Part shown: one piece after another, positions 14,190 to 60,413 of the stretch | How the letters are laid out: each line of letters starts with the position of its first letter | How positions within the stretch are numbered: the first letter of the stretch is position 1 | Source of the DNA: Clostridia bacterium | Lineage (GTDB): Bacteria > Bacillota > Clostridia > UBA1212 > UBA1255 | DNA: 64,000 nucleotides | Direction of reading: 5' to 3' | Assembly: GCA_016287565.1 (NCBI GenBank) | Contig: JAEFAM010000002.1 | Coordinates: 7,648 to 71,647, forward strand | Notes under the pieces: generated by a model | Told to the model about the DNA's origin: nothing | The model's database searches: none | What the model saw: the letters and a program-made list of their open reading frames with translations, nothing else | Translations under genes and position numbers: made by a program

Positions 14190-14644
14190 ATTTAGCCGAA
14201 GCAGCAGGCTTCGATTTAGCTGTGAGCGCCAGCGAACAATTTAACTGAAGGCCGCAGGTTCCATTGTCTCTGAAAGCCTGCGGTCTTCAGTTTCACTCGC
14301 GCGCCAGCGCGAATTTAGCTCGGCCGTCAGGCCGAATTTAACTGCCGCAAAGAGGCAATTTAGCTTGACGAAGTCGAATTTAGCTGCTCGCCTCGCAAGC
14401 AATTTCGCTCGCGCGTCAGCGCGAACATCACTCCGCGAAGCGGAATATCACTTGCCCGCAGGGCAAATATCACTCGCGCGCCAGCGCGAATTTAGCTCGG
14501 CCGTCAGGCCGAATATCCCTCGCCGCAGGCGAATATCACTCGGCTCCAGTCTGACGTCAGGCCGAATATCCCTCGCCGCAGGCGAATATCACTCGGCTCC
14601 AGTCTGACGTCAGGCCGAATATCACCGCGGCTCCCACCTGCTCC
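14190..14644. repeat. Array of mini-hairpins with octamers AATTTAGC/AATATCAC (opposite orientation to 13540..13815), ending in 2.5 copies of a 59-bp unit
   Basis: Units such as CTCGCGCGCCAGCGCG-AATTTAGCT, CGGCCGTCAGGCCG-AATATCCCT and CGCCGCAGGCG-AATATCACT. The 59-bp unit contains the palindrome CTGACGTCAG. The array abuts the GH3 stop codon. Confidence 0.8.
14247..14288. repeat. Conserved hairpin class 1 (GAARRCCGCAGGYT-CCATTGTCTCTGAAA-AGCCTGCGGYYTTC)
   Basis: 14-bp stem. The loop is identical to the copy at 26787..26828 and differs by one nucleotide (CCATTGTCACTGAAA) from the copy at 24584..24625. Stem differences between copies are compensatory. Confidence 0.8.
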
Positions 14645-38749: not shown

Positions 38750-39275
38750 AAATTTAGGGGCGGGGCGCAGTGATATTCTGCTTCGCAGAGTGATATTGCG
38801 CGGGGCGCAGTGATATTGTGCTTCGCACAGCTAAATTACTCGCTTGCGCTCGCAGCTAAATTGCGTGCAGGGCACGCAGCTAAATCGAAGCCGTCCGGCT
38901 TCGGCTAAATTGACCTTCGGTCAGCTAAGCTCGGTTGCGGCGAGTGATATTGCGCGAAGCGCAGTGATATTCTGCTTCGCAGAGTGATATTGCGCGGGGC
39001 GCAGTGATATTCTGCTTCGCAGAGTGATATTGCGCGGGGCACAGTGATATTGTGCTTCGCACAGCTAAATTACTCGCTTGCGCTCGCAGCTAAATTGCGT
39101 GCAGGGCAAATTAAGCTGTTCGCGCCAGCGAACGATATCACTCGGCGAAGCCGAACATCACTCGCACGCAAGTGCGAATATCACTGCGAGTGTTAACGAG
39201 CAATATCACTTGGCGTAGCCGAACATCACTCGCACGCCGGTGCGAATATCACTGCTCATACCAGCGAGCAACAGG
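38750..39275. repeat. Large mini-hairpin/octamer array that switches orientation near 39115 (GTGATATT/GCTAAATT units, then GATATCACT/GAACATCACT units)
   Basis: Units of about 20 nt: TGCGCGGGGCGCA-GTGATATT, CTGCTTCGCAG-A-GTGATATT, GTGCTTCGCAC-AGCTAAATT and so on. A 150-bp block (38760-38910) is duplicated at 38950-39110. The right arm reads CGGCGAAGCCG-AACATCACT, CGCACGCAAGTGCG-AATATCACT. Confidence 0.8.
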
Positions 39276-41836: not shown

Positions 41837-42919
41837 TCATTCTTCCCCCGCGTTGGCGAGCGTCCTCGCCCGGTCGTCCGTGATAAGGGCGTCGATGATC
41901 TCGTCCAGATCTCCGTTCAGCACCGATTCCAGCTTGTACAGCGTGAGGTCGATGCGGTGATCCGTAACTCTGTTCTGGGGGTAGTTGTAGGTCCTTATGC
42001 GTTCGCTCCTGTCCCCCGTTCCCACCTGGGAGCGCCTCTCTTTCGAAAGCGCCTCGTCCTTGGCGGCGGCCTCCATCTCGTACAGCCTGGAATACAGCAC
42101 TTTGAAAGCCTTTTCCTTGTTCTTGAGCTGGGACCGCTGGTCCTGGCATGTCACCACTATGCCCGTGGGCTTGTGGGTCAGGCGGATGGCGGAATCGGTC
42201 TTGTTAATGTGCTGGCCTCCTGCGCCGGAAGAGCGGAAAATGTCGATCTCCACGTCGTCCGGGTCAATGGTCACGGAAGCCTCCTCCGCTTCGGGCAGCA
42301 CAGCAACGGTGGCCGTAGAAGTATGTATGCGGCCGGAGGATTCGGTGGAAGGCACCCGCTGCACCCGGTGCACTCCGCTCTCGTATTTAAGCCGGGAGTA
42401 CGCGCCTTTTCCGTCAACGGAAAACACGATCTCTTTTATGCCTCCAAGTTCCGTTTCGCTGATATCCACCAGGTCAACGCTCCAGCCGCGCCCTTCCGCG
42501 TAATGTGTGTACATCCGGTACAGCACTGCTCCGAACAGCGCGGCTTCCTCTCCCCCGGCGCCTGCCCTGATCTCCATAAAAACGTTCTTGGAATCGTTGG
42601 GGTCTTGGGGCGTCAGCAATAGTTTCAGCCGGTCTTCCAGTTCCTCCGCCTCCCGGGTCTTCTCATCGAATTCCGTCTTTAAAAGCTCCCGGAACTCCGG
42701 ATCCGAGGCTCCCGGACCGTTCAGTTCCGAAAGCGCCTCGTCACGCTCCGCCACCGCCTTCTTGTATTGCCGGAATACCGTCACGATCTCTTCCAGGTCG
42801 GAATGCTCCGAAAGCAGCGAGGCGTAAAGCGCCCTGTTGCCGATGGTCCCGGGTTCGCTAAGGCGCATATTCAGTTCTTCGTACCGGTTTTCGGCCGCGG
42901 CTAATTTTTCCAGCATCAT
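41837..42919 (-). CDS. prfA: Peptide chain release factor 1
   Basis: GGQ motif ([11 protein letters not shown]) and the RF1-type PST tripeptide ([10 protein letters not shown]). Confidence 0.85.
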
Positions 42920-45619: not shown

Positions 45620-46733
45620 TTATTTGTTTTTATTGAATTCCGCCGCTAAATAAGCGTTTATAAATCCGTCGATATGGCCGTTCATGACCCTGTCCACCAT
45701 CGTTTCTTCGTAGGAAGTGCGGTGGTCTTTCACCAGCGTGTACGGACAAAATACGTAGGAGCGTATCTGGCTGCCCCAGGCGATCTCCATCTGGACGCCT
45801 TTCAGGTCTTCGATGCGGGCAACGTTTTCACGCTGCTTGATCTCGAACAGCTTGGACCTCAGCATGCGCATGGCGGTCTCCCTGTTCTGGACCTGGGAAC
45901 GCTCGGTCTGGCAGGCAACGGTGATGCCGGTGGGCTTGTGGGTGATGCGCACCGCGGAGTCGGTCTTGTTGACCTTCTGGCCGCCGGCGCCGGATGAGCG
46001 GTACGTGCCCACGTCCAGGTCTTCGGGACGGATGTCGATCTCGATGGTGTCGTCGATCTCGGGCATGACTTCCACGGAGGCGAAAGAGGTGTGTCGCCTT
46101 CCCGCGGCGTCGAAGGGAGATATGCGCACCAGCCGGTGCACGCCGTGCTCCGACTTCAAAAAGCCGTAGGCGTTGTCCCCGTTGAACTGCACCACCGCGC
46201 TCTTCAGGCCAGCCTCGTCGCCGTCAAGATAGTCCACTACCTTGACCTCGAAGCCGTGGTCCTCTCCCCAGCGGCAATACATCCTGAACAACATGGAGCC
46301 CCAGTCCTGAGACTCGGTGCCTCCCGCGCCGGGATGTATGGTGAGGATGGCGTTGTTGGCGTCGTACTCTCCGGTGAGCAGCGTCTCCAGACGCAGCATC
46401 TCGAATTCTTCGTTATATTTCTCGATGGTCTCCGCCACCTGGGCAGGCATCGATTCGTCGTTTTCCTCGTTGCCCAGCATGATCATCAGCTGGATCTCCT
46501 CCAGCATCGATTCCAGATGCTGGAATTTTCCGAGTTTGGTCTTGAGCACTTTAAGGTGCTTCAAAGTGGCCTGGGAATTTTCCTGATCGTTCCAGAAATC
46601 CGGCTCGGAAGCCTTATTTTCCAGCTCTTCGATCAGATTTGACATGCCCTCCGTGTCAAAGTGAATCCCTCAGATCATATAAATTTTTCTGGAGCCCGTC
46701 GATGGCCTGGGCGTATTGATCCAGTTCAAACAT
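45620..46733 (-). CDS. prfB: Peptide chain release factor 2, expressed through a programmed +1 frameshift
   Basis: SPF tripeptide and GGQ motif. ORF0 is ATG(46733)...LRDSL then CTT-TGA-C at about 46655-46661, after which the +1 frame continues DTEGMSNLIEEL. A partial Shine-Dalgarno (AGGGAT) lies upstream of the shift site. Confidence 0.85.
46650..46665 (-). other. prfB +1 ribosomal frameshift site (CUU UGA C) with upstream internal SD-like AGGGAU
   Basis: Reverse complement of 46640-46675 reads ...AGGGATTCACTTTGACACGGAGGGCATG. Confidence 0.8.
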
Positions 46734-49207: not shown

Positions 49208-50077
49208 ATGTTTGCCAACCGGAAAATTGCCCGCGTAAACGGGAACGAAAACAGAAGATTCGGTACGGTATGCCGCCGGACCTTATTAGTATTGTCCTCG
49301 CTGCTGCTTTTAGCCGCGTTCTTTGCCGCGCCGTTCACGTCGAACGTTATGGCGGACAATAAAAAGAAGATCGATTTCTGCGACGGCACGATGCAGAGCA
49401 ATCCCCGGCCTTTCAACTACTACGGGAGCGTGGGATTCAGGTTCGAAATACCGGAAGGATTCAAGCTGGATCAGTTCGACCTCCTTGCCTGCCCCACGTG
49501 GGGAGAACGGGCCAACGCCGGATTCACGGCGGATATCTACCCCTGGAAGGGCTCCTATAAAGAATCCGTCACCGGCTACCCTCTGGACAGCTGCGTCATT
49601 ACACAGCACAGGGACAATGCCGGCATAACGCTCACTTACGACTACGTTCCCGCCGGCGAATACCTCATCCACATCTACAAATTTACAGATACGATCGGGA
49701 CCTGGGAATTCGTGGCGCTCCCCGAACAATACGCTTCCACATGGGCCTACTACCAGGACGGCGTCGAGGAGATCGAATACCTCCCGGGGACCAGCATGGT
49801 CGTCAGTTTCGATAAGAACCCTCACGAGGTCTATCCCCGGACTCCGGCGCCCACCGAAGAACCTGCAGGCGACGGCGCTGAAGATGAGCAGGCTACCGAC
49901 GTACCGGTACATACCAGGGAAAGGATAACCGAGGAGCCGAAGGAAGCGGCAGATGAGAAGCGCTCCGGCGCGGGAGGCATCATAGCGGGAACGGCGGTGG
50001 CGCTGCTGGCCGTGGCGGCGACGCTCGTAACGATCGGAATTATTGTCCGCAAAGATAAAAAAGACGCGAACGTTTAA
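49208..50077 (+). CDS. Surface-anchored protein of a local paralogous family (signal peptide, conserved about 110 aa domain, acidic linker, C-terminal TM anchor)
   Basis: Domain FNYYGSVGFRFEIPEGFKLDQF...YDYVPAGEYLIHIYKFTDTIGTW is homologous to the second domain of 50120..51394. C-terminal TM IIAGTAVALLAVAATLVTIGIIV. Confidence 0.6.
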   Translation: MFANRKIARVNGNENRRFGTVCRRTLLVLSSLLLLAAFFAAPFTSNVMADNKKKIDFCDGTMQSNPRPFNYYGSVGFRFEIPEGFKLDQFDLLACPTWGERANAGFTADIYPWKGSYKESVTGYPLDSCVITQHRDNAGITLTYDYVPAGEYLIHIYKFTDTIGTWEFVALPEQYASTWAYYQDGVEEIEYLPGTSMVVSFDKNPHEVYPRTPAPTEEPAGDGAEDEQATDVPVHTRERITEEPKEAADEKRSGAGGIIAGTAVALLAVAATLVTIGIIVRKDKKDANV

Positions 50078-50119: not shown

Positions 50120-51394
50120 ATGAAAAAAATCTGTGCGATCATTGTCGCGGCAGCGATCCTGCTGGGCCTCTTCGGAGCTGTAAACGCAGGGGCAGCCTCT
50201 TCGTACGTCAGCCAGGACGATTTCGACGGTACCATCCGCGGACAGGCGCTGGACATCATCAGAGGCGACGGCGTGGATCTCTACACGCCCGGCCAGACCG
50301 GCGACTACCTCGTCAGCACGAAGAACACTATTTACGGACCTTACCAGACCGTTACCATGCGCGGCTGGATCGGCGTTGAAGATACCGAGATCAAGCAGTT
50401 CGGATACGTCATCGGCGACGGCGAGCCCGTGTTCAGCGACGATTTCTTCACCGAGACCGAAGCCGCGGTGCTTGGAGCCGGCGGCGACTACGCGCTGCGT
50501 TATATGGTGACCATGGACGTTTCCGGCCTGGGAGAAGAAGAGACGCTGCTCATGCCCGTAGTCAAACTTGAAGACGGCACCGTTCTGGCAGTCACCTTCA
50601 ACCAGATCAAGTACACCACCAAGCCCGAGCCCGTAGAAGAAAAGCCCGTCATCATGCAGCTGAACAACGGCAACACCAGCACGCCCTTCAACTTCAGCGG
50701 CCATATAAGCGTAGGTTACAGATTCACCATTCCCGAGGGATACAAGCTCGATACCTTCACCGTGGTGCAGTCCCCCACCTGGAACGGCCCCAACACCGGC
50801 ATCGGCCTGATCGCCTCCATTTACAGATGGGTCAACGACGATTATGAAGACACCATCGACCAGGATCCCCTCGGCGTATTCGAAGAAGAGGATCACAAGG
50901 ACAACGCCAACCTGATCGTTTCCTACGACTACATCCCCGCCGGCGAGTACCTCATCGAACTCACCGAATTCACGGGCAACATCGGCGGCTGGATGGCTGC
51001 CCAGAAGACCGCCGAATACGAGGATATGTTCCACGCCTACGTTGACGAAGAAGAAGTGGACGACTGCGTGCTCGTCAAGATGTCCATAGTGGTGGACAAC
51101 GATCCTCCGGCTCCCACGGAAGTTCCCACCGAGAAACCCACCCAGGCGCCTACCGAAGTTCCCACCGAAGATCCCGCCACCGAGGCTCCCACGGATGCTC
51201 CCGCCACCGAAGAACCCGCCACCGACGCTCCCGTTGCCACCGAGAAGGCCGACGACGATACGGGCGACAAGGACAATAAAGACGAGACCAAGTCCGGCGC
51301 CAATACCGGCCTGATCATCGGCATCATCGCGGCACTAGTCGTAGTGGCAGCCGTCGCGGCAATCATTATCATCTCCAAGAAGAAAAAGAAATGA
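50120..51394 (+). CDS. Surface-anchored two-domain protein of the same paralogous family
   Basis: Signal peptide. Domain A (QTVTMRGWIGVEDTEIKQFGYVIGDGEPVF) resembles 58942..60186. Domain B (FNFSGHISVGYRFTIPEGYKLDTF...YDYIPAGEYLIELTEFTGNIGGW) resembles 49208..50077. PT/E-rich linker and C-terminal TM plus KKKKK. Confidence 0.6.
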   Translation: MKKICAIIVAAAILLGLFGAVNAGAASSYVSQDDFDGTIRGQALDIIRGDGVDLYTPGQTGDYLVSTKNTIYGPYQTVTMRGWIGVEDTEIKQFGYVIGDGEPVFSDDFFTETEAAVLGAGGDYALRYMVTMDVSGLGEEETLLMPVVKLEDGTVLAVTFNQIKYTTKPEPVEEKPVIMQLNNGNTSTPFNFSGHISVGYRFTIPEGYKLDTFTVVQSPTWNGPNTGIGLIASIYRWVNDDYEDTIDQDPLGVFEEEDHKDNANLIVSYDYIPAGEYLIELTEFTGNIGGWMAAQKTAEYEDMFHAYVDEEEVDDCVLVKMSIVVDNDPPAPTEVPTEKPTQAPTEVPTEDPATEAPTDAPATEEPATDAPVATEKADDDTGDKDNKDETKSGANTGLIIGIIAALVVVAAVAAIIIISKKKKK

Positions 51395-52134: not shown

Positions 52135-52441
52135 GTATTGCAAAATATGTGGATATCGGATCTATATAGGAGTTCTCTCATTTCAAGTTGTCTTCACATT
52201 ACTTTATTACCAATGGTTAATGCGCGTTACATTAAAGAACCCGTTATCTGCAAGATTGTCTTCCTATCGATTTGATGTCACTTCGGCGGCATAAACTAAT
52301 CTCAAGCGATGATTCACGCCAAGATTTACGCGCTGGATAGGAGAATGTATTATATTTTTCAACGAGTATATGATCGAACTATCACTATGAAGTCGCCGTT
52401 TTTTGACACGAACGACACCGGATTGATGATGCCGGAGGCGC

Positions 52442-53974
52442 TTACGGAAACGTCATCTGCTCCATGAAGGCGTTGACGAAGAAGCTGTCGGTGGAAAGCT
52501 CCAGGACGTTGACCCGGTCGGTGAAAGCGCGGATCTCGTCCCGGGCGGCAGCCGAGAGCAGGAGCATCACGGCGCCGGCAAGGGCGGCATTGCCCGAAAC
52601 GTGCACTTTACGCACGAGCGCTTCAGGTATCAGGCCTATCTTTCCGGCGTTTTCGACGTTCAGGAAGCTGCCGAAACCTCCGGCTATATGGAATATTTCC
52701 ACCTCTTCGAGCCCGGTGAGCGCGGCGTGGAGCAGCGACAAAACTCCCGCGTGGATGGCGCTTTTGGCCAGCTGCACGGCCCGTATATCCTTCCGCGTAA
52801 GGCAAACCCCTCCGCCGATTTCGGCGCTCTCTTCTTCCATATATCCCGTCTCGTCGACGAGCTCCAGTTCCCTCAGGCAGCTCACCGCGTCCACCAGTCC
52901 GCTTCCGCAGATGCCTTTCGCCGTAGCTCCCCTCTCCTGGCCTATCACGTGGACTTGAATGGCGCCGCTCCCGTCGACCGCTGCCCGGTCGATGGCTCCG
53001 TCGAAGCCTCCCATGCCCGAGCTGATACCGGCTCCTTCAAATGCCGGTCCCGCTGCGGTAGAGCAGGCAAAAAGTTCCCCTCCCGCGCAAAGCACCATCT
53101 CTCCGTTGGTGCCAATATCGGTGAGCAGTTCGCATACCGCGCCGTTCTTCCCCAGATCCGCTAAGGACGCGCACATAACGTCTGCGCCTATAAAGGCAGC
53201 GGCGCAGGGAGGCAGATAAATATCCGTATCAGGCTCCAGGCAGGTCAATTCCAGCTGCCTTGCCGCATATGTTTTTCCAAACAGTTCTTTCGGCAGGAAC
53301 GGAGCGTGAGTGAGAGGTTCCGTGTCAACGCCCGCAAAAAAGCTCAGCATCACCGTGTTGCCCGTAACCACCGCGCCGTCAATATCCCGGCTGTCGATGC
53401 CGGCCTTGTCCGCCAGCTCTCTCACCAGCCCGTCGACCGCATTGCGGATGGCCTCCGTCAATTCCTCTCCCGCTCCTTTAAGGGCCGCTTCCATCCTGGA
53501 CACCACGTCCGCGCCGTAGCTCGTCTGGGGATTTGAAGCGCCTCCGGAAGCGGCAACGGTCCCGTCCGGACGGCATATCACCGCCGCCAGAGTGGTGGTC
53601 CCTATATCCACCGCCGCGCCGTACTTTTTAAAGACCGGAGCGCGCTCGAACTCGGGAAGCTCTCCGGATATGCGTATGACTTCCCCTTTGCCGCGGCCGG
53701 ACCTGGTCGCTACGGCGCAGTCGCCCGTAGCCCTCGTGAGGCAGGCCAGCCGGACTCCCTGCTCCAGCTCGTCGGCGGAGAGAAGTTTCCGCTCCTCTTC
53801 CGTAACGGGAGAAATGTCGCCTTCAGTCACTATGATCCTGCATTTTCCGCACTTGCCGTGACCGCCGCAGGCAAAAACCGGAGCGGCTTCCGGGCAGCGC
53901 TCTCGCAGCACGTCTCCCAGTTTCCGATCCGGTTCGCACAAATATTCAGTTCCGTCGATCTTGATCCTGATCAT
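52442..53974 (-). CDS. RACo-type reductive activator of corrinoid proteins (N-terminal 2Fe-2S ferredoxin plus ASKHA ATPase domain)
   Basis: Plant-type ferredoxin Cys pattern (CGGHGKCGKC ... C) followed by ASKHA phosphate motifs (AVDIGTTT, DIGTNGE, AGGFG). Confidence 0.75.
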   Translation of the reverse strand: MIRIKIDGTEYLCEPDRKLGDVLRERCPEAAPVFACGGHGKCGKCRIIVTEGDISPVTEEERKLLSADELEQGVRLACLTRATGDCAVATRSGRGKGEVIRISGELPEFERAPVFKKYGAAVDIGTTTLAAVICRPDGTVAASGGASNPQTSYGADVVSRMEAALKGAGEELTEAIRNAVDGLVRELADKAGIDSRDIDGAVVTGNTVMLSFFAGVDTEPLTHAPFLPKELFGKTYAARQLELTCLEPDTDIYLPPCAAAFIGADVMCASLADLGKNGAVCELLTDIGTNGEMVLCAGGELFACSTAAGPAFEGAGISSGMGGFDGAIDRAAVDGSGAIQVHVIGQERGATAKGICGSGLVDAVSCLRELELVDETGYMEEESAEIGGGVCLTRKDIRAVQLAKSAIHAGVLSLLHAALTGLEEVEIFHIAGGFGSFLNVENAGKIGLIPEALVRKVHVSGNAALAGAVMLLLSAAARDEIRAFTDRVNVLELSTDSFFVNAFMEQMTFP

Positions 53975-54531
53975 ATATCGAACAGCACGCCGCTGAAATA
54001 AGTGACCGTATTCTGACCGTTGATATATTTCATCCCGGCCGCAGCGGCCAGTTTAGAAACGTTGACGCCGTACGTCTCGAGAGAAGCCATTGCCAGGTCA
54101 GGATGGCGGCAGGGCTCGTCCGTCTTCTTTGCGCAGACTTCGCAGACGCGGCAGCCTCCGGCGCACAGAAACAGCTTCCGGTTCACGTTCAGCTTCTCCG
54201 TCAGCGCCTTTCTCACATTTTGAGTGAGTTCGTTGTGGTACACAGAAGCGGCCATCATACCCTCGATGTCGAAGCTGTCTTCCAGCTCGTTCACCGACTG
54301 GTACACCAGAATATAGCTGTAAGACCTGAGTCTCTCTATGAGCACGTCGATGTCGCCGGCATCGGGAGGACACATCCAGCACCTGCCGTAGTTGCCGCAG
54401 GTGTTCATGGCGCAAAGGTCCCTGAAAGAGCGGTCCGTTTCAACGTCTGAGACAGGTATCACCGAGGCCCGGAACGCTCCCAGTTCAAGCGTCAAGTCGC
54501 ATATCTTCTTGAATATACCCTCGTTTTTCAT
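53971..54531 (-). CDS. Cys-rich predicted metal-binding protein (DUF2284-like), commonly found beside corrinoid methyltransferase genes
   Basis: Cys clusters CGNYGRCWMCPP and CAGGCRVCEVC. Overlaps both neighbouring genes by 4 nt. Confidence 0.5.
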   Translation of the reverse strand: MKNEGIFKKICDLTLELGAFRASVIPVSDVETDRSFRDLCAMNTCGNYGRCWMCPPDAGDIDVLIERLRSYSYILVYQSVNELEDSFDIEGMMAASVYHNELTQNVRKALTEKLNVNRKLFLCAGGCRVCEVCAKKTDEPCRHPDLAMASLETYGVNVSKLAAAAGMKYINGQNTVTYFSGVLFDI

Positions 54532-55169
54532 GCGGTAAGGAAGGATTTGGCCACGTCCGCGGCGCTGGCGGCGTCGGGAGTGTACGCGTCGGCTCCGATC
54601 TTCTTGCAGAAGGCGTCGTCAACAGGAGCGCCGCCGATCATGATCTTGACCTTGTCTCTGATTCCGGCTTCCTCCGCCTTCTTGACCACTTCTTCCATCA
54701 CGCCCATGGTGGTGGTGAGCAGCGCGGACAGGCAGATAAGCTGGCAATCCTGCTCGATGGCGGTGTTGATGAACGTCTCCGGCGCCACGTCGGTGCCCAG
54801 GTCGATGACTTCGATGCCCTTGCCTTCCAGCATCATCTTGACCAGGTTCTTGCCGATGTCGTGGAGGTCGCCCTGCACGGTGCCCAGGCAGGCACGGCCG
54901 ATGGACTGGACGCCGGCTTCTTCGAGGTAGGGTTTCAGCATCTGGGCGCCCTGGTTCATTGCCCTGGCGGCGATCAATACTTCGGGCACGTACACTTCTC
55001 CGGCCTTGAATTTGCCGCCAACAATGTTCATGCCGTCCAGCAGTCCCTCGTTCAGTATGGTCTCGGGAGAGATACCCTCGTCCAGCGCCTGCTGTACCAG
55101 TTCCTTTACGAGCTTCGCTCTGCCTTTCTGAAGGTTCTCAGAGATGTTTTTTAAAAGTTCGGTATTCAT
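54528..55169 (-). CDS. Cobalamin-binding corrinoid protein (MtaC/MtbC/MttC type)
   Basis: B12-binding DxHxxG motif (GDLHDIGKN) in a Rossmann domain preceded by a helical cap. Confidence 0.8.
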   Translation of the reverse strand: MNTELLKNISENLQKGRAKLVKELVQQALDEGISPETILNEGLLDGMNIVGGKFKAGEVYVPEVLIAARAMNQGAQMLKPYLEEAGVQSIGRACLGTVQGDLHDIGKNLVKMMLEGKGIEVIDLGTDVAPETFINTAIEQDCQLICLSALLTTTMGVMEEVVKKAEEAGIRDKVKIMIGGAPVDDAFCKKIGADAYTPDAASAADVAKSFLTA

Positions 55170-55201
55170 GGTCAGTCTCCTTTATAGTGTCGATACCGTA
55201 T

Positions 55202-56320
55202 TTAAATGCGTATTTTCTTGATCTCTTCGGCGTAGTATTGCACCAGCTCGAATTTCGTTCCCGGCATGAGCCTGTGGTCGGGGCAGGGTATGAAGCCTCC
55301 CAGCGCCGTCAGGCGTTTCATCCGCTCTATCTCGGCGTCCACCGCAGCCTTGTCACGGCGAAGCGCCGTCTTGTCCATGCCTCCCACGCCCAGCACTTCG
55401 TTGCCGAACTGTTTGCGGGCGGGTTCGAACTGATCTCCCCAGACGCCCACTTCTATGGGGAACATGGTGTTGACGCCGTTGCCGACCCACGTGGGCAGCA
55501 GTTTCCCCACCACTCCGTCGCAGTCGAGGGATATGATGTCTATCCCGTACTGATGGCAAAGATCGTTGCGCTTTTTATAATGTTTGGCGCAGAGTTCATC
55601 GAACAGTTCCGGCGCGATCAGCGGCCCGTTCTTGAAGCATATGTCCTCCCAGTAATGAGCGAAATCGAACTTTGCTCCCGTCTCCAGGATGGCTTTGGCG
55701 CACTGGTACTGCATCTCGGCGTAGGTGTCGACGATATCCGCGAACAGGTCCTCGTCTTCGTCGTACATCAGGTAGCTCATGCCGACCACGGTGCAGATGT
55801 TCCTGATATTGCCCATGACGGAGCCCAGATGGAGTCCCAGGGGCCTGTCGTAAGGCCGCTCGTCGTTGAGCTTTCTGAACCAGTCCAGGTTGACGCGCTC
55901 GGGTTTGAATTCCATGCGGTGCCTGTACTGGGTCTCGAAGGTCTCTCTGTCTTTCAGCAGGTAGTCGTCTTCTGAGGGGATCGAAGTGATGCCGGGTTTT
56001 ACACGCTCGATGTTGCCGTCGCCGTTCTGCACACGCACGGTGCCGTCGGGAAGCGTCTCCACGACCTTGCACTCGAAGGGAGGCATCAGGTGGTTGGCGG
56101 GGCCGGCCATATTCTGCCAGTTAAAATCCCAGCCTATGAGCCGCTCGAGCTCCCGGTCCTTCTCGCTGCCGTCGTAATTGCCCTCGGCCAGTTCCGCAGG
56201 TATCTTGCCCTGCTCCGCCCATTCTTTCAATAGCTCGGGCCAATAGCCGAAATGCACCGCCGGAAGCCTGTCCACCGGTTTAAAATGAAGTATATTCAGA
56301 GCGCGTTCCCTGTTGGTCAT
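55202..56320 (-). CDS. Uroporphyrinogen-decarboxylase (UroD/MtaA)-family methyltransferase
   Basis: UroD-like TIM-barrel pattern. N-terminus MTNRERALNILHFKPVDRLP is paralogous to the next gene. Confidence 0.7.
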   Translation of the reverse strand: MTNRERALNILHFKPVDRLPAVHFGYWPELLKEWAEQGKIPAELAEGNYDGSEKDRELERLIGWDFNWQNMAGPANHLMPPFECKVVETLPDGTVRVQNGDGNIERVKPGITSIPSEDDYLLKDRETFETQYRHRMEFKPERVNLDWFRKLNDERPYDRPLGLHLGSVMGNIRNICTVVGMSYLMYDEDEDLFADIVDTYAEMQYQCAKAILETGAKFDFAHYWEDICFKNGPLIAPELFDELCAKHYKKRNDLCHQYGIDIISLDCDGVVGKLLPTWVGNGVNTMFPIEVGVWGDQFEPARKQFGNEVLGVGGMDKTALRRDKAAVDAEIERMKRLTALGGFIPCPDHRLMPGTKFELVQYYAEEIKKIRI

Positions 56321-56356
56321 ATCTCACCACACTCTTTCCGGGTCAACGTTCCCGGC

Positions 56357-57358
56357 TCAGCCCAGCACGGCCTTCCTGCCGTACTCTTTCAGCATATCGA
56401 CGTATTTATGGTATCGCTCCAGCGGGCAATCCGGCGGCGTCTGGTGATCGACGCTGGGCACGAATCCGCCTGTCTTCATAACGGGCAGAAGCCGCTCGAA
56501 CTCCTGCCGCATGGCCTCGTCGCTCTCGCGCATGGTCATCTTGTCGAAGGCGCCGATGAACAGGAAATCCGGATGGGCTTCCCGAAGGGCCGCCACGTCC
56601 ACTCCCGCCTTGCGCTCCAGGGGCAACACTCCCTGTATCCCCGCGCGTTTCAGCCAGGGTATCATCTTGGAGATGTCGCCGTCGGAGTCGACAATGACTT
56701 TCGTCCCGTGTTCTCTTATGTACGGCACTATCTTGTTGTAGTACGGAAGCAGGAACTCGTCAAAGCTGTCTTCCGAGATCATCGGCCCGTTGTTGTAGCT
56801 CATATCCTCGCCGAAAGTCATGAATTCCGGCGTCAGCACGGAGTACAGTTTCTCCAGCGTCCTCATCTGGAATTCCGCCAGATCGTCGAGTATCCGGTGG
56901 TACAGCTCCGGCTGGTCGTAGAACGAATAAAGGTGGTTCTCGATGCCCAGGATCGTCCTGGGGAACCAGAAGCCGCCGTCAAGAGAGAACCAGATTGGAA
57001 ACTCTCCTGCGTCGTGCCTGCCCTTTAAAGTGCGTATAAATTCGATGATTCCGTCGATATCCTTGTCGGGATACAGGTACGGCAACAACTGCTCGTACCC
57101 TTCCTCGTCTTCGGCAATAGGTCCTCCGAAGGACGCAGGCTGGGGGCAATCGGCGTTTCTGTGCGGGAACCAGAACTGGTAATGCTGATCAAGCCCGAGG
57201 TACGGCGCGATCTCGTGGAACCCAAGTCCCGCGGGGAATCCCTGTCCGACCCACGCCTGGATCGTATCGCCCCACCAGGACGCCCACTCGACTGCCGGCA
57301 GCCTGTCGTCCGGCTTCTCGAAATTTAATACCGCCTGAAAACGTTCTCTGTTAGTCAA
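56357..57358 (-). CDS. UroD/MtaA-family methyltransferase, second paralogue; TTG start
   Basis: MTNRERFQAVLNFEKPDDRLP. Start codon TTG preceded by AGGGGGG Shine-Dalgarno. Confidence 0.65.
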   Translation of the reverse strand: MTNRERFQAVLNFEKPDDRLPAVEWASWWGDTIQAWVGQGFPAGLGFHEIAPYLGLDQHYQFWFPHRNADCPQPASFGGPIAEDEEGYEQLLPYLYPDKDIDGIIEFIRTLKGRHDAGEFPIWFSLDGGFWFPRTILGIENHLYSFYDQPELYHRILDDLAEFQMRTLEKLYSVLTPEFMTFGEDMSYNNGPMISEDSFDEFLLPYYNKIVPYIREHGTKVIVDSDGDISKMIPWLKRAGIQGVLPLERKAGVDVAALREAHPDFLFIGAFDKMTMRESDEAMRQEFERLLPVMKTGGFVPSVDHQTPPDCPLERYHKYVDMLKEYGRKAVLG

Positions 57359-57567
57359 CCGCGTTTCCCCCCTGTCGAACCGACGTTGCTTACTGTAAAA
57401 TTTTAGCGGTTCGGGCGGGCAAAGTCAAGGGAAAAGTCCGGGTTTTGAACAGTGGATAAAGGGTCAAACCGTGACGAAATAACCTTTTCGTCGCAGCGGC
57501 GTAACAAAACAACCGAAAGAATTTCTTCACGAAACTCTCAGAAGATCGAATAAGATCGAAAAAGATG

Positions 57568-57596
57568 TTGACACGGAATAGTTAATATAATATAAT
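57568..57596 (+). promoter_or_regulatory. Consensus sigma-70 promoter TTGACA-N17-TATAAT for tRNA-Ser
   Basis: TTGACA at 57568-57573 and TATAAT at 57591-57596. The tRNA begins 12 nt downstream. Confidence 0.7.
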
Positions 57597-57608
57597 CACT
57601 CCCGGCCT

Positions 57609-57697
57609 GGAGAAATCGCGTAGTTGGTCGAGCGCGCACGACTGGAAATCGTGTAACCGTCAGAAGCGGTTCGAGGGTTCGAATCCCTCTTTCTCCG
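57609..57697 (+). tRNA. tRNA-Ser (anticodon GGA)
   Basis: Acceptor GGAGAAA/TTTCTCC, anticodon stem CACGA/TCGTG with loop CTGGAAA, long variable arm ACCGTCAGAAGCGGT, T-arm GAGGG-TTCGAAT-CCCTC, discriminator G, no encoded CCA. Confidence 0.9.
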
Positions 57698-57700
57698 TAC

Positions 57701-57736
57701 GAAAAAACACCACCCAACCGGGTGGTGTTTTTTCGT
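57701..57736 (+). terminator. Rho-independent terminator of tRNA-Ser
   Basis: AAAAAACACCACCC-AACC-GGGTGGTGTTTTTT perfect hairpin with a U-run. Confidence 0.85.
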
Positions 57737-57842
57737 ACAACCGAGGGGATTCGAACCGTCCCTTCTTCCCCTTGTTGCCGCCCCGTTCTTTCCCGCCTCT
57801 CTCCCCGCTTCTTGCCATCTCCCCCTCCGCCATGCTATAATA

Positions 57843-58941: not shown

Positions 58942-60186
58942 TCAATAAGCGAAATACTCGTGGATCCCCAGATCTTTGCAGAACCAGCTGGAACCGGGAG
59001 CCTCGGACTGGTTGGTGAATCCTTCTCCGCCGCCCAGCACCGCGAACATGCCGTAGTACAGTTTCTCCACGCCGTACTCGAACTCGGCCGCGTCAGCCAC
59101 GTCGGTAACTTTGAAGAAGTCGACGGGCAGCTTGAACTCTGCGGTAAACGTGGTACCGTCAACCACTACTTTGTACTCGATAGATTCGGTGATATCCACG
59201 CCGGCGGCGCTGTCGTCATCCTTCAGGGCAGTCTTGTGGTTGTGCTGCAGGAACGTGAGGCTGTCGCCCAGGACTACGGTGAGGAACAGTCCGGGAACTT
59301 CTTCGAGGCGGGCGCCGGGGTTGAAGTTCAACTGCACCATCTCGCCCGCGTTGAGGCCGGTGCCGACGAAACCAACGTACAGGCCGTCTTCCTTCTGGCT
59401 CATATAGTAAGTGATCGTCCGCTTGGCCATCTTGGAACCGGTCCAGGTCTTGGCGTTGTTCTTGTCCATCGTGAAGCAGGTATTGTACTCGCCTACGCCG
59501 ATAGTGCCGTCGATGGCGGCTTCAGCGGCTTCGGGGCCGTCGTAGAACAGCACGAAGGGCGCCGTTTCAAGGTTCAGATAATAAAGTCCGCTCTCGACCT
59601 TGGCAACGATCTTGAGCTCGTGCTGAGCTCCGGCCAGGTGCGACACGGGAATGTCTACGCTGAAGCGCTGGGCAAATTCGCCGCCCGCAGCCTTGACTTC
59701 GGGCTGAGTGGTCTCAAAGAAAGAGGTGCTGAGCACTACGGGGCCCTGATCGATCTGGTAACCGATGGAGAGCAGTTCTTCTTCTATGAAGCCGAGCCAG
59801 CCGCGCATAGTGACGGTATTGGTCTTGCCGTCTTTGCCGTCGATGGTGTCTTCTATGTCAAGCCTGTAGGAACTGACTGTACCGTCGGCAAGGATCTTGC
59901 CGTTCTGCTTGATCGTATCGAAGGAGACTGCCTTTATCTCGGCTTCTTCCTGGTCGAGTATCTCGTATCTGTAAGGATCCGGATAGGGCTCGGGAGTGGG
60001 TTCGGGCGTAGGAGTGGGAGCTTCCGTGGCGGGCGCTTCCGTAACAACCGGCGCTTCGGTGGCGGCTGGAGCTTCGGTAGCCGGGACTTCGGTAGGCTGA
60101 GCGTCTTCCTGAGGCGCCTTGGCGCAGCCTGCGAACAGAGCGGCGGCCAGTGCCAGTGACAACACTATGGCTATGATCTTTTTCAT
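58942..60186 (-). CDS. Lipoprotein of the same paralogous surface-protein family (domain A homologue)
   Basis: Lipobox LFAGC. PT/E-rich linker (TEAPATEAPTPTPEPTPEP). NTVTMRGWLGFIEEELLSIGYQIDQGPVVL resembles domain A of 50120..51394. Start at ATG 60186 with GGAGG Shine-Dalgarno. Confidence 0.6.
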   Translation of the reverse strand: MKKIIAIVLSLALAAALFAGCAKAPQEDAQPTEVPATEAPAATEAPVVTEAPATEAPTPTPEPTPEPYPDPYRYEILDQEEAEIKAVSFDTIKQNGKILADGTVSSYRLDIEDTIDGKDGKTNTVTMRGWLGFIEEELLSIGYQIDQGPVVLSTSFFETTQPEVKAAGGEFAQRFSVDIPVSHLAGAQHELKIVAKVESGLYYLNLETAPFVLFYDGPEAAEAAIDGTIGVGEYNTCFTMDKNNAKTWTGSKMAKRTITYYMSQKEDGLYVGFVGTGLNAGEMVQLNFNPGARLEEVPGLFLTVVLGDSLTFLQHNHKTALKDDDSAAGVDITESIEYKVVVDGTTFTAEFKLPVDFFKVTDVADAAEFEYGVEKLYYGMFAVLGGGEGFTNQSEAPGSSWFCKDLGIHEYFAY

Positions 60187-60413
60187 GATTTTTTCCTCCA
60201 AAACATTGATTTTTGGTTTGTTCCGGTCAATTATACACCATATTTTCCCTGCGTACAATATATTTATCCGCACGTTTACCGTTCCGTCACCGCGATTCAG
60301 CCTCGATCTGCCGTTGACGCCGTCTTTACTCCGCCTCGCTTTTTTGCTAAAATACGCCTGCCAACGGGGCGCGGCGGCGACCCGCGCACGTCAACGGTCG
60401 GAGGCCTGTCTTA

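Follow-up and report, generated by a model that had tools for sequence, protein, structure and literature searches.

The three-component O-demethylase and dehalogenase systems of anaerobic Firmicutes, OdmABCD/Vdm of Acetobacterium dehalogenans, Dhaf_4610-4612 and CdmBCA, each combine a substrate:corrinoid methyltransferase (MT I) of the UroD superfamily with a small His-on corrinoid protein and an ATP-dependent activase. The same set of components is encoded by the five-gene operon described here, which occupies positions 52,442 to 57,358 of a 64,000-nucleotide stretch of DNA from a Clostridia bacterium (GenBank assembly GCA_016287565.1, contig JAEFAM010000002.1, positions 7,648 to 71,647 of the forward strand). 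This whole 64-kb stretch is referred to below as the window, and its numbering is used throughout. The operon codes for two UroD-family proteins, which we call U1 and U2, a corrinoid protein, a DUF2284 protein, and the activator RACo. Its working principle is known, being that of a corrinoid protein-dependent methyltransferase system such as Odm/Vdm/Cdm, Mta/Mts, or MetH. What is new relative to the described systems is the methyltransferase clade, an Asp/Asp/His signature in the active site, a constant DUF2284 partner, and the lack of a recognisable acceptor-side methyltransferase (MT II).

The likeness to Odm, Vdm and Cdm extends to an active site without thiol-type Cys ligands. The differences, however, are several: no pterin-binding MT II is present in the operon, in the window, or among recurrent neighbours in related loci; U1 and U2 have no detectable sequence similarity to CdmB; two paralogous methyltransferases share one carrier; a conserved DUF2284 protein is added; and genes for glycoside hydrolases and a homocysteine module are inserted into sister operons. 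In the MtaB-MtaC/MtaA and MtsA-MtsB systems of methanogens, a donor methyltransferase likewise stands beside a corrinoid protein, a dedicated reductive activase is used, and MtaA (PDB 4AY7) is a separate zinc-thiolate MT II of the UroD fold that may be encoded elsewhere. In contrast to these systems, U1 and U2 have the UroD fold instead of that of MtaB, a coenzyme M pathway is not expected in the bacterial host, and the acceptor enzyme is off-locus. Type 1 mlp gene clusters (PMC10418091) also contain several UroD-family methyltransferases, a corrinoid protein, a RamA/RACE-type activase and no folate methyltransferase; they, too, are widespread in obligate anaerobes, and a thiol or selenol partner has been proposed for them. 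Finally, MetH and split MetH (PMC12478193) are built from a donor barrel, a B12 carrier, a zinc homocysteine barrel, and a reactivation module, and a stand-alone MetH-type homocysteine module is found between U2 and the carrier in sister operons of the locus studied here. The donor of our system has the UroD fold, whereas that of MetH is pterin-binding; RACo and ATP stand in place of S-adenosylmethionine (AdoMet) and flavodoxin; and the homocysteine module is absent from the window.

The operon consists of five intact open reading frames (ORFs), all on the minus strand and tightly packed, preceded by a promoter-like site:

57428-57400, minus strand: promoter-like site TTGACT-17-TAAAAT, about 40 bases upstream of the U1 start
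56357-57358, minus strand: U1, 333 aa, TTG start; Pfam URO-D, E-value 1.7e-17, 63.9 bits
55202-56320, minus strand: U2, 372 aa; Pfam URO-D, E-value 4.1e-08, 33.1 bits
54528-55169, minus strand: corrinoid protein, 213 aa; Pfam B12-binding_2, E-value 6.2e-21, and B12-binding, E-value 2.3e-26
53971-54531, minus strand: DUF2284 protein, 186 aa, Cys-rich; Pfam PF10050, E-value 2.2e-45
52442-53974, minus strand: RACo, 510 aa; Pfam Fer2, E-value 1.1e-08, Raco_middle, E-value 1.5e-35, and RACo_C_ter, E-value 1.4e-59

The ORFs and their Pfam domains agree with the parts list given by the first-pass annotation, which had been made from the letters of the DNA, and the predicted domain assignments of all five genes lie far beyond chance. 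The corrinoid protein and DUF2284 genes, as well as the DUF2284 and RACo genes, overlap by four bases (stop/start), while gaps of 36 and 32 bases separate U1 from U2 and U2 from the corrinoid protein gene, respectively. Shine-Dalgarno-like sequences precede the operon genes. In the case of U1, for which the annotation had noted a strong Shine-Dalgarno sequence, AGGGGGG with an eight-base spacer stands ahead of the TTG codon; this codon is the earliest possible start in the ORF and coincides with an N-terminus (MTNRERF) that is conserved in 38 homologues. The MTNRER sequence common to the two UroD paralogues was confirmed at the N-terminus of both translations. The promoter-like site matches 10 of 12 consensus positions, which is a consensus match and no proof of function. 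No cobalamin riboswitch was found at the Rfam gathering threshold. The five genes are one genuine operon for cobalamin-dependent methyl transfer with an ATP-dependent reductive activase.

The corrinoid protein contains the DxHxxG motif, which reads GDLHDIGK, and scores 217 bits with the MtgC-like NCBIfam model and 197.5 bits with the pyl_corrinoid model, against a cut-off of 215.3. It is a standard His-on corrinoid methyl carrier that cycles between Co(I) and CH3-Co(III). RACo has an N-terminal [2Fe-2S] ferredoxin domain, a RACo middle region, and an ASKHA ATPase domain, the architecture of RACo of Carboxydothermus hydrogenoformans, AcsV, and RamA. It differs from these proteins in scoring below the equivalog cut-offs of the corresponding NCBIfam models (282.7 bits vs 800 for AcsV and 126 vs 500 for the RamA-type model), in being always paired with DUF2284, and in having many relatives without the ferredoxin domain. 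Of a three-component system, the operon contains a DxHxxG corrinoid protein and an ATP-dependent activase, and U1 and U2 supply a putative substrate:corrinoid methyltransferase with a known MT I fold.

The protein that had been described as DUF2284-like is a true DUF2284 member, a stronger assignment than the one originally made. No solved structure of a DUF2284 relative was found, and the literature that was searched gave two passing mentions only. In most related loci (see below), the DUF2284 gene lies downstream of the corrinoid protein gene, and in the commonest layouts it follows directly after it. We infer that the DUF2284 protein is an Fe-S or other metal-binding helper in corrinoid reactivation or maturation. 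In many related clusters (for example, L024:6127-7497 and most type B loci), RACo is a 456-aa protein without the [2Fe-2S] ferredoxin domain, and DUF2284 is retained. A ferredoxin-less RACo beside DUF2284 is consistent with DUF2284 being an electron-transfer partner, but does not prove it.

Judged from their sequences, U1 and U2 are sister paralogues in one deep, uncharacterised UroD clade. Their families align end to end (hhalign E-value 1.7e-71), and the two proteins share 49% identity over the first 47 residues and 28% over the C-terminal half. U1 relatives carry the clade signatures WEDMSYNNGP, VDSDG, PLE, GAFDK, and GGFVPSVDHQTPPD, and U2 has an extra four-strand beta insertion (residues ~85-119) that is absent from U1. 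Clustering at 50% identity divides the wider U2 clade into 2049 clusters with E-values of 1e-3 or less, 191 of them with E-values of 1e-30 or less. Searches of solved structures with U1 or U2 using phmmer gave no relevant match. The U2 family profile matched HemE with an E-value of 3.7e-06, in the C-terminal region only, and MtaA with an E-value of 0.017; the U1 family profile gave a weak HemE match (E-value 5e-04). CdmB (PDB 9rui), which was present in the searched library, was matched neither in phmmer searches with U1 and U2 nor by the family profiles at E-values up to 1-10; of the aryl-O-demethylase/CdmB clade (OdmB, VdmB, MtvB, MtoB, and CdmB), it is the one member with a structure in the PDB and the one covered by the comparison. 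A UroD paralogue of class C, which is found in related loci, does match CdmB. AlphaFold models of both proteins were of high confidence (predicted local distance difference test, pLDDT, 96.0 for U2 and 92.8 for U1), and the best fold matches for both in Foldseek were MtaA, HemE, and MetE. In structural alignments with MtaA (4AY7), U1 and U2 were 15-17% identical to it, and HemE was equally remote by fold. On the evidence of these models, both proteins can be firmly placed in the UroD/MetE-like TIM-barrel superfamily. Both are cytoplasmic.

With the NCBIfam models, U1 scored 40 bits with MtbA (cut-off 600), 37.7 bits with MtaA/CmuA TIGR01463 (cut-off 235.4), and 21.2 bits with HemE TIGR01464 (cut-off 302.95), while no NCBIfam model, TIGR01463 and TIGR01464 included, was matched by U2. 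By the tests applied, both proteins lie outside the HemE, MtaA/CmuA/Mlp, and CdmB-type clades. The Pfam family name and the presence of HemE structures among the best fold matches could suggest that one is dealing with a genuine uroporphyrinogen decarboxylase of the haem or sirohaem pathway, and clustering of both proteins with HemE in a haem operon had been named in advance as the outcome that would overturn the methyltransferase interpretation. PVWxMRQAGR is the N-terminal substrate-binding motif of HemE. The N-termini of U1 and U2 read ...DDRLPAVEWASWWGD... and ...VDRLPAVHFGYWPE..., respectively, and do not contain it. Together with the sub-cut-off TIGR01464 scores, the lack of tetrapyrrole genes in the window, and the location of U1 and U2 in one operon with a corrinoid protein and RACo, this leaves the HemE identity with a negligible probability, and it was rejected.

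The zinc ligands of MtaA were mapped onto U1 and U2 in a multi-family alignment of UroD paralogues from related loci, in which class C served as the bridge. The bridge was checked on MtaA itself, where HnCG aligns with HiCG, and sGCd with pGCg. At the positions where class C paralogues and MtaA (4AY7) have His-x-Cys-Gly and Gly-Cys, U1 and U2 have Asp-x-Asp-Gly and Asp-His. The His-x-Cys...Cys ligands of MtaA correspond to Asp266-x-Asp268 and His349 in U2 and to Asp224-x-Asp226 and His305 in U1, so neither protein has the His-Cys-Cys zinc ligand set. The residues of the U2 site, including Glu225/Asp226, Glu290, Lys317, and Asp348, are at least 90% conserved over 78 relatives down to 25% identity, and the equivalent U1 residues are invariant or nearly so among 39 U1 relatives. 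In the AlphaFold model, the conserved U2 residues are located at or just past the C-terminal ends of successive barrel strands. According to Kountz and Balskus (2023, PMC10418091), S-methyltransferases of the UroD superfamily retain His-Cys-Cys, while O-methyltransferases either have carboxylates in place of the Cys residues or have lost the latter. By this signature, both U1 and U2 look like O-methyl-type, donor-side enzymes.

The same evidence bears on a salvage of S-methyl or Se-methyl groups by Mlp-like enzymes. The gross composition of the operon (UroD-family methyltransferases, a corrinoid protein, a bacterial-type activase, and no folate methyltransferase) and its occurrence in anaerobic Firmicutes are indeed similar to those of mlp clusters, and MtaA-like proteins with His-Cys-Cys are present in related loci. 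Mlps, however, are defined by more than 25% identity with soluble methyltransferases of coenzyme M (MtaA/MtbA) and by a His-Cys-Cys zinc site, and neither the identity of U1 and U2 to MtaA, nor their TIGR01463 scores, nor their Asp/Asp/His residues agree with this definition. Moreover, mlp clusters lie in a sulfur/selenium gene context, whereas the U2 family is accompanied by carbohydrate genes, and no sulfur or selenium genes are present in the window. Membership in the MtaA/CmuA or Mlp groups was ruled out by score, identity, and ligand set, and an Mlp-like function of the operon as a whole is very improbable.

The first-pass annotation had suggested a division of labour in which one UroD protein handles the substrate and its neighbour the acceptor. 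The similarity of U1 and U2 at ligand positions argues for two donor-side enzymes rather than a donor/acceptor pair, which is the less probable arrangement, and in related operons a different enzyme, with a zinc-thiolate site, occupies the acceptor-type position; the proposal is disfavoured on both counts. The annotation's assignment of the operon to O-demethylase or methylamine-type systems holds at the level of corrinoid methyl transfer; the methylamine type is unsupported, there being no MttB/MtbB/MtmB-like gene, and the classical O-demethylases are an analogy only. The statement that no pterin-binding MtrH-type methyltransferase is present was borne out for the 64-kb window, in which neither a pterin-binding, nor a PF02574, nor a further UroD-family gene could be found. 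None of the recognised kinds of MT II (MtrH/MeTr, MtaA-type, or a homocysteine module) is encoded in the operon or the window, and the acceptor-side enzyme may be encoded elsewhere in the genome.

To place the operon in context, loci with similarity to U2 were collected. The U2 cluster family, which has no characterised member, comprises 436 matching stretches in GTDB species-representative genomes; the 80 best loci are nearly all from rumen or gut Clostridia, and the homologues come, with few exceptions, from metagenome-assembled genomes (MAGs) of Ruminococcus, Oscillospiraceae, Acutalibacteraceae, Acetatifactor, and Mageeibacillus. In a set of 82 non-redundant loci gathered by similarity to U2, with neighbouring genes grouped by homology clustering of all ORFs, the recurring core was U2, corrinoid protein, DUF2284, and RACo. 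Median identities to the window proteins were 78.5% for U2, 75.5% for the corrinoid protein, ~47-54% for DUF2284, and ~44-49% for RACo; the floor of the U2 values is set by the selection of loci, while that of the corrinoid protein is independent of it. An orthologous U1 was present in 17 of the 82 loci only, and other UroD paralogues were found elsewhere: class C (MtaA-like, with His-Cys-Cys and a Pfam URO-D score of ~180 bits; for example, L024:5118-6134) in 42 loci, and further paralogues named E, F4, F5, and F6. Acetatifactor aquisgranensis DSM 110981, a cultured carrier (L052), has the gene order corrinoid protein-class C-U2-DUF2284-RACo. In 10 loci (7 sister operons and 3 more), U2 has a homocysteine module nearby, a PF02574 protein with the zinc motif GLNC...GGCCG; by a rough estimate, ~1% would be expected by chance for a gene present at one or two copies per genome. 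In sum, 52 of the 82 loci contain a zinc-thiolate methyltransferase, either class C or the homocysteine module.

This distribution can be looked at in a different way. If U1 were a substrate-specific MT I and U2 a shared MT II that passes the methyl group to, for example, tetrahydrofolate, or if U2 took the methyl group of CH3-H4folate as part of a split methionine synthase, its UroD/MetE fold standing in for the pterin-binding module, the five genes would be complete in themselves. No related locus lacks U2, which is also the most conserved protein and is adjacent or close to the corrinoid protein gene in most loci that hold one, while the paralogues U1, C, E, F4, F5, F6, and G16 (see below) come and go, which is the usual pattern of one MT II and several MT I. 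The five-gene operon in its compact form is found repeatedly with no additional methyltransferase, and the conserved carboxylates could protonate the pterin N5. However, U1 and U2 are mutual closest relatives with the same active-face signature, as expected of enzymes that perform one chemistry on related substrates; every characterised MT II of bacteria is pterin-binding, with no known UroD-type folate methyltransferase (PMC13222342, PMC10418091); the zinc-thiolate methyltransferase of the 52 loci is most simply the acceptor-side enzyme; and U2 also occurs in isolation, or with a homocysteine module as its neighbour, where no corrinoid protein gene is near. We consider a shared MT II role of U2 possible but rather improbable.

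A carbohydrate connection is apparent in the 17 sister operons, in which orthologous U1 (69-83% identical, with an outlier of 47% in L040) and U2 (75-84%) occur together. Their gene orders, where Hcy stands for the homocysteine module and GH and CBM for glycoside hydrolase and carbohydrate-binding module families, include the following:

U1-U2-corrinoid protein-DUF2284-RACo: the window, L007/8, L009, L013, L014, L056
U1-U2-Hcy-corrinoid protein-DUF2284-RACo: L020
U1-U2-Hcy-PF12876-corrinoid protein-DUF2284-RACo: L017
U1-U2-PF12876-GH43/CBM32-corrinoid protein-DUF2284-RACo: L019
U1-U2-GH43/CBM32-Hcy, then contig end: L021, L069, L080
U1-U2-GH95-Hcy-PF12876-corrinoid protein-G16-(847-aa lipoprotein)-DUF2284-RACo: L010, L012

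Seven of the 17 sister operons carry glycoside hydrolases between U2 and the corrinoid protein gene (GH95, GH43-CBM32, and the cellulase-like PF12876), none of them with a signal peptide, and seven have the Hcy module at this position. The inserts in L012, L017, and L019 are on the same strand as the operon genes, separated by tiny gaps or slightly overlapping. The Hcy module, a PF02574 protein of 281-284 aa (for example, L020:11165-12019), scores best with the YitJ, BHMT, and MetH homocysteine domains; its scores with MmuM are lower. Other layouts also contain carbohydrate genes: a GH106-like gene in L035 and GH78-like genes in L064 and L093, the one in L093 having a U1 homologue and a sugar ABC transporter as neighbours. 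Solute-binding and permease genes of the CUT1 type were present in 5-7 related loci, and AraC regulators were found as well. It had been stated that the substrate could not be deduced from the sequence; comparative context now provides a lead, carbohydrate-derived methyl groups, which is unproven.

Based on these data, we tentatively favour, at somewhat short of an even chance, a reading in which the corrinoid protein is loaded from O-methyl donors, which may be methylated plant sugars, and unloaded by a thiol methyltransferase whose gene lies elsewhere. The operon would then be the donor half of a cobalamin-dependent methyl-transfer system together with its maintenance machinery. U1 and U2 would each move a methyl group from an O-methylated small molecule onto Co(I) of the shared corrinoid protein, with U2 acting as a donor-side methyltransferase in close partnership with the carrier. 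The cytoplasmic glycoside hydrolases embedded in orthologous operons point to a carbohydrate origin of the donor, which would most likely be a methyl ether or methyl ester on a sugar freed from plant cell-wall glycans. Methyl esters would be easy substrates for Co(I), while alkyl methyl ethers would need a Lewis-acid activation similar to that of MtaB, whose activation of a non-aryl CH3-O bond is the nearest mechanistic analogue. Such activation could be provided by the conserved carboxylate/histidine face (in U2, Glu225/Asp226, Asp266-x-Asp268, Glu290, Lys317, and Asp348-His349), as in MtaB acting on methanol. RACo and ATP would re-reduce accidentally oxidised Co(II) to Co(I), with DUF2284 probably acting as an electron-transfer or metal helper.

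The His-Cys-Cys enzyme or homocysteine module of the 52 loci points to a thiol acceptor. CH3-Co(III) would be unloaded onto a thiol, most plausibly homocysteine, which would yield methionine, by a zinc-thiolate methyltransferase encoded outside the operon and the window; in sister operons, this enzyme would be the stand-alone MetH-type homocysteine module or the His-Cys-Cys MtaA-like enzyme. The layout would resemble that of MetH, with UroD-like donor modules in place of the folate module and RACo in place of the AdoMet reactivation module. There is a precedent in Ruegeria, where a split MetH and a demethylase have been demonstrated to use a common corrinoid subunit (Mausz et al. 2025, PMC12478193). 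A more far-reaching version of this reading, to which we give a rather low probability, is that U1 and U2 found a family of anaerobic cobalamin-dependent O-methyl-sugar demethylases which, together with the homocysteine module, form a MetH-like machine, through which rumen and gut Clostridia would convert methyl groups of plant glycans directly to methionine or some other methylated thiol. Candidate substrates are 4-O-methyl-glucuronate, 2-O-methyl-fucose, 2-O-methyl-xylose, and methyl-esterified uronates of pectin, arabinogalactan, and xylan. In an incomplete literature library, we found no account of the U2 cluster family or of corrinoid-dependent or anaerobic demethylation of methylated sugars, and nothing relevant on methyl sugars of rhamnogalacturonan II (RG-II), 6-O-methyl-galactose, or O-demethylases of rumen Ruminococcus.

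A donor of the aromatic kind has to be considered as well. The operon could encode an O-demethylase of aryl methyl ethers, namely methoxylated aromatics from lignin such as ferulate, syringate, or vanillate, with a pterin-binding MT II encoded elsewhere and tetrahydrofolate as the acceptor. It shares the layout of Odm/Vdm/Cdm, a UroD-superfamily MT I with a corrinoid protein and an activase; its hard-ligand site suits O-methyl donors; and the rumen and hindgut are rich in methoxylated phenolics. Nevertheless, U1 and U2 have no detectable sequence similarity to CdmB, which the class C paralogue does match, no pterin-binding family is found among neighbours recurring in at least 5 related loci, and the genes inserted in sister operons encode glycoside hydrolases and homocysteine modules, with none for aromatic compounds. 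The carriers are mostly MAGs of Ruminococcus, Oscillospiraceae, and Acutalibacteraceae that we infer to be non-acetogenic. An aryl ether donor is, in our estimate, unlikely.

Several points weigh against the methyl-sugar reading that we favour. For Co(I), alkyl methyl ethers are chemically more difficult to cleave than aryl ethers, and such cleavage is unprecedented for sugars. The Asp/Asp/His site is a candidate metal site only; the aligned His is also conserved in HemE, which is metal-free. The invariable presence and high conservation of U2 are also expected of a shared acceptor-side MT II, and collecting loci by similarity to U2 biases the view of this protein as part of the core. None of these glycoside hydrolase or homocysteine-module genes is present at the locus or elsewhere in the window, to which both would be extended by orthology with sister operons. 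Genes of carbohydrate-active enzymes are common in rumen Clostridia, and the association could be partly due to chance. Finally, the compact five-gene form is found in at least five other genomes (L007, L009, L013, L014, and L056) and may be self-sufficient, which would favour the donor/acceptor model proposed originally.

Xylan, pectin (RG-II included), and arabinogalactan regularly contain O-methylated sugars and methyl-esterified uronates, and a known route of O-methyl-sugar demethylation is an oxygen-dependent one that uses a P450 in marine bacteria. If the methyl-sugar reading is correct, corrinoid methyltransferases would gain a new substrate class, the presence of glycoside hydrolases inside B12-dependent operons would be explained, fibre degradation would be tied to methionine supply and B12 demand in the rumen, and it would follow that MetH-like machines can be built with UroD-fold donor modules. 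If it is false, the locus is still a well-delimited and tractable corrinoid system without a recognisable acceptor enzyme.

Several further features of the related loci were observed. In 23 loci, an AraC regulator (AraC_binding and HTH_18) appears to be fused to a complete corrinoid protein (ORF cluster 7). The fusion was confirmed with Pfam in L024:3098-4612 and L039:12314-13894 and is assigned by homology clustering in the 21 others; in several loci, L024 among them, the cluster encodes no other corrinoid protein. The fusion protein may have a regulatory role in which its own cobalamin reports the methylation or redox state. G16 is a Cys-rich family of ~400-aa proteins present in 14 loci (for example, L027:6598-7806, L044:4165-5418, L064:11135-12373, and L012:16213-17442), with motifs YYGCCE, GCSPW, and GCPCD and no Pfam or NCBIfam match, and its gene often lies between U2 and the corrinoid protein gene. 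Its YDRPEYLH sequence resembles UroD-like paralogues, and G16 may be a very divergent barrel methyltransferase. The 847-aa lipoprotein encoded between G16 and DUF2284 in L010 (16357-18900) and L012 (17449-19992) has no Pfam or NCBIfam match either. In L001:3524-4705 and L026:4275-5519, a 393-aa PF02574 protein with an acidic C-terminal extension is encoded 3.3 kb upstream of a lone U2, on the same strand; the surroundings in L001 include a sulfatase, a heparinase-like protein, a GH13 protein, and putative solute-binding lipoproteins.

In the window itself, the operon is preceded by a tRNA-Ser(GGA) gene (57608-57698, plus strand; Rfam), and further upstream by genes for a membrane protein, a lipoprotein, a DUF3810 protein, and a solute-binding protein of the sugar type that stands as an orphan. 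On the downstream side, an ORF of 140 aa is found together with two surface-anchored paralogues. Elsewhere the window is housekeeping in character (RF1/RF2, Sua5, Upp, capsule genes, Rho, Trk, and fucose isomerase), with no methyltransferase, methionine, folate, tetrapyrrole, sulfur, or selenium genes and no PF02574 zinc homocysteine module (GLNC...GGCCG) of the split-MetH type. Identity of 95% at the nucleotide level to L007:1915-7519 and L008:1172-6776 is limited to window positions 52155-57758, that is, to the operon and tRNA-Ser; the flanks are unrelated, and in L007 an HTH_3 gene and an RHS-repeat gene are found there. The operon and the tRNA gene may constitute a mobile block linked to the tRNA, or a hot spot of recombination.

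Three related secreted proteins without a Pfam domain are encoded near the operon, at 49208-50077 (plus strand), 50120-51394 (plus strand), and 58942-60273 (minus strand); two have Pro/Thr-rich linkers and C-terminal membrane anchors, and the third has a lipoprotein-type signal. The genes at 49208-50077 and 50120-51394 are convergent to the operon, both are kept next to RACo in L009 and L014, and one homologue is present in L020 (48-54% identity). Their retention may reflect a functional linkage or mere synteny. Three copies of the Gut-1 RNA motif (RF01706) were detected in the window, at 14397-14475 (minus strand, 66 bits), 38768-38841 (plus strand, 51.5 bits), and 38922-38995 (plus strand, 54 bits), two of them in tandem upstream of a capsule-like gene block. 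The window also contains two class I release-factor genes (PCRF and RF-1 domains), at 45620-46645 and 41837-42919, both on the minus strand. The 341-aa release factor is probably the product of prfB, whose true start may lie upstream, behind a programmed +1 frameshift.

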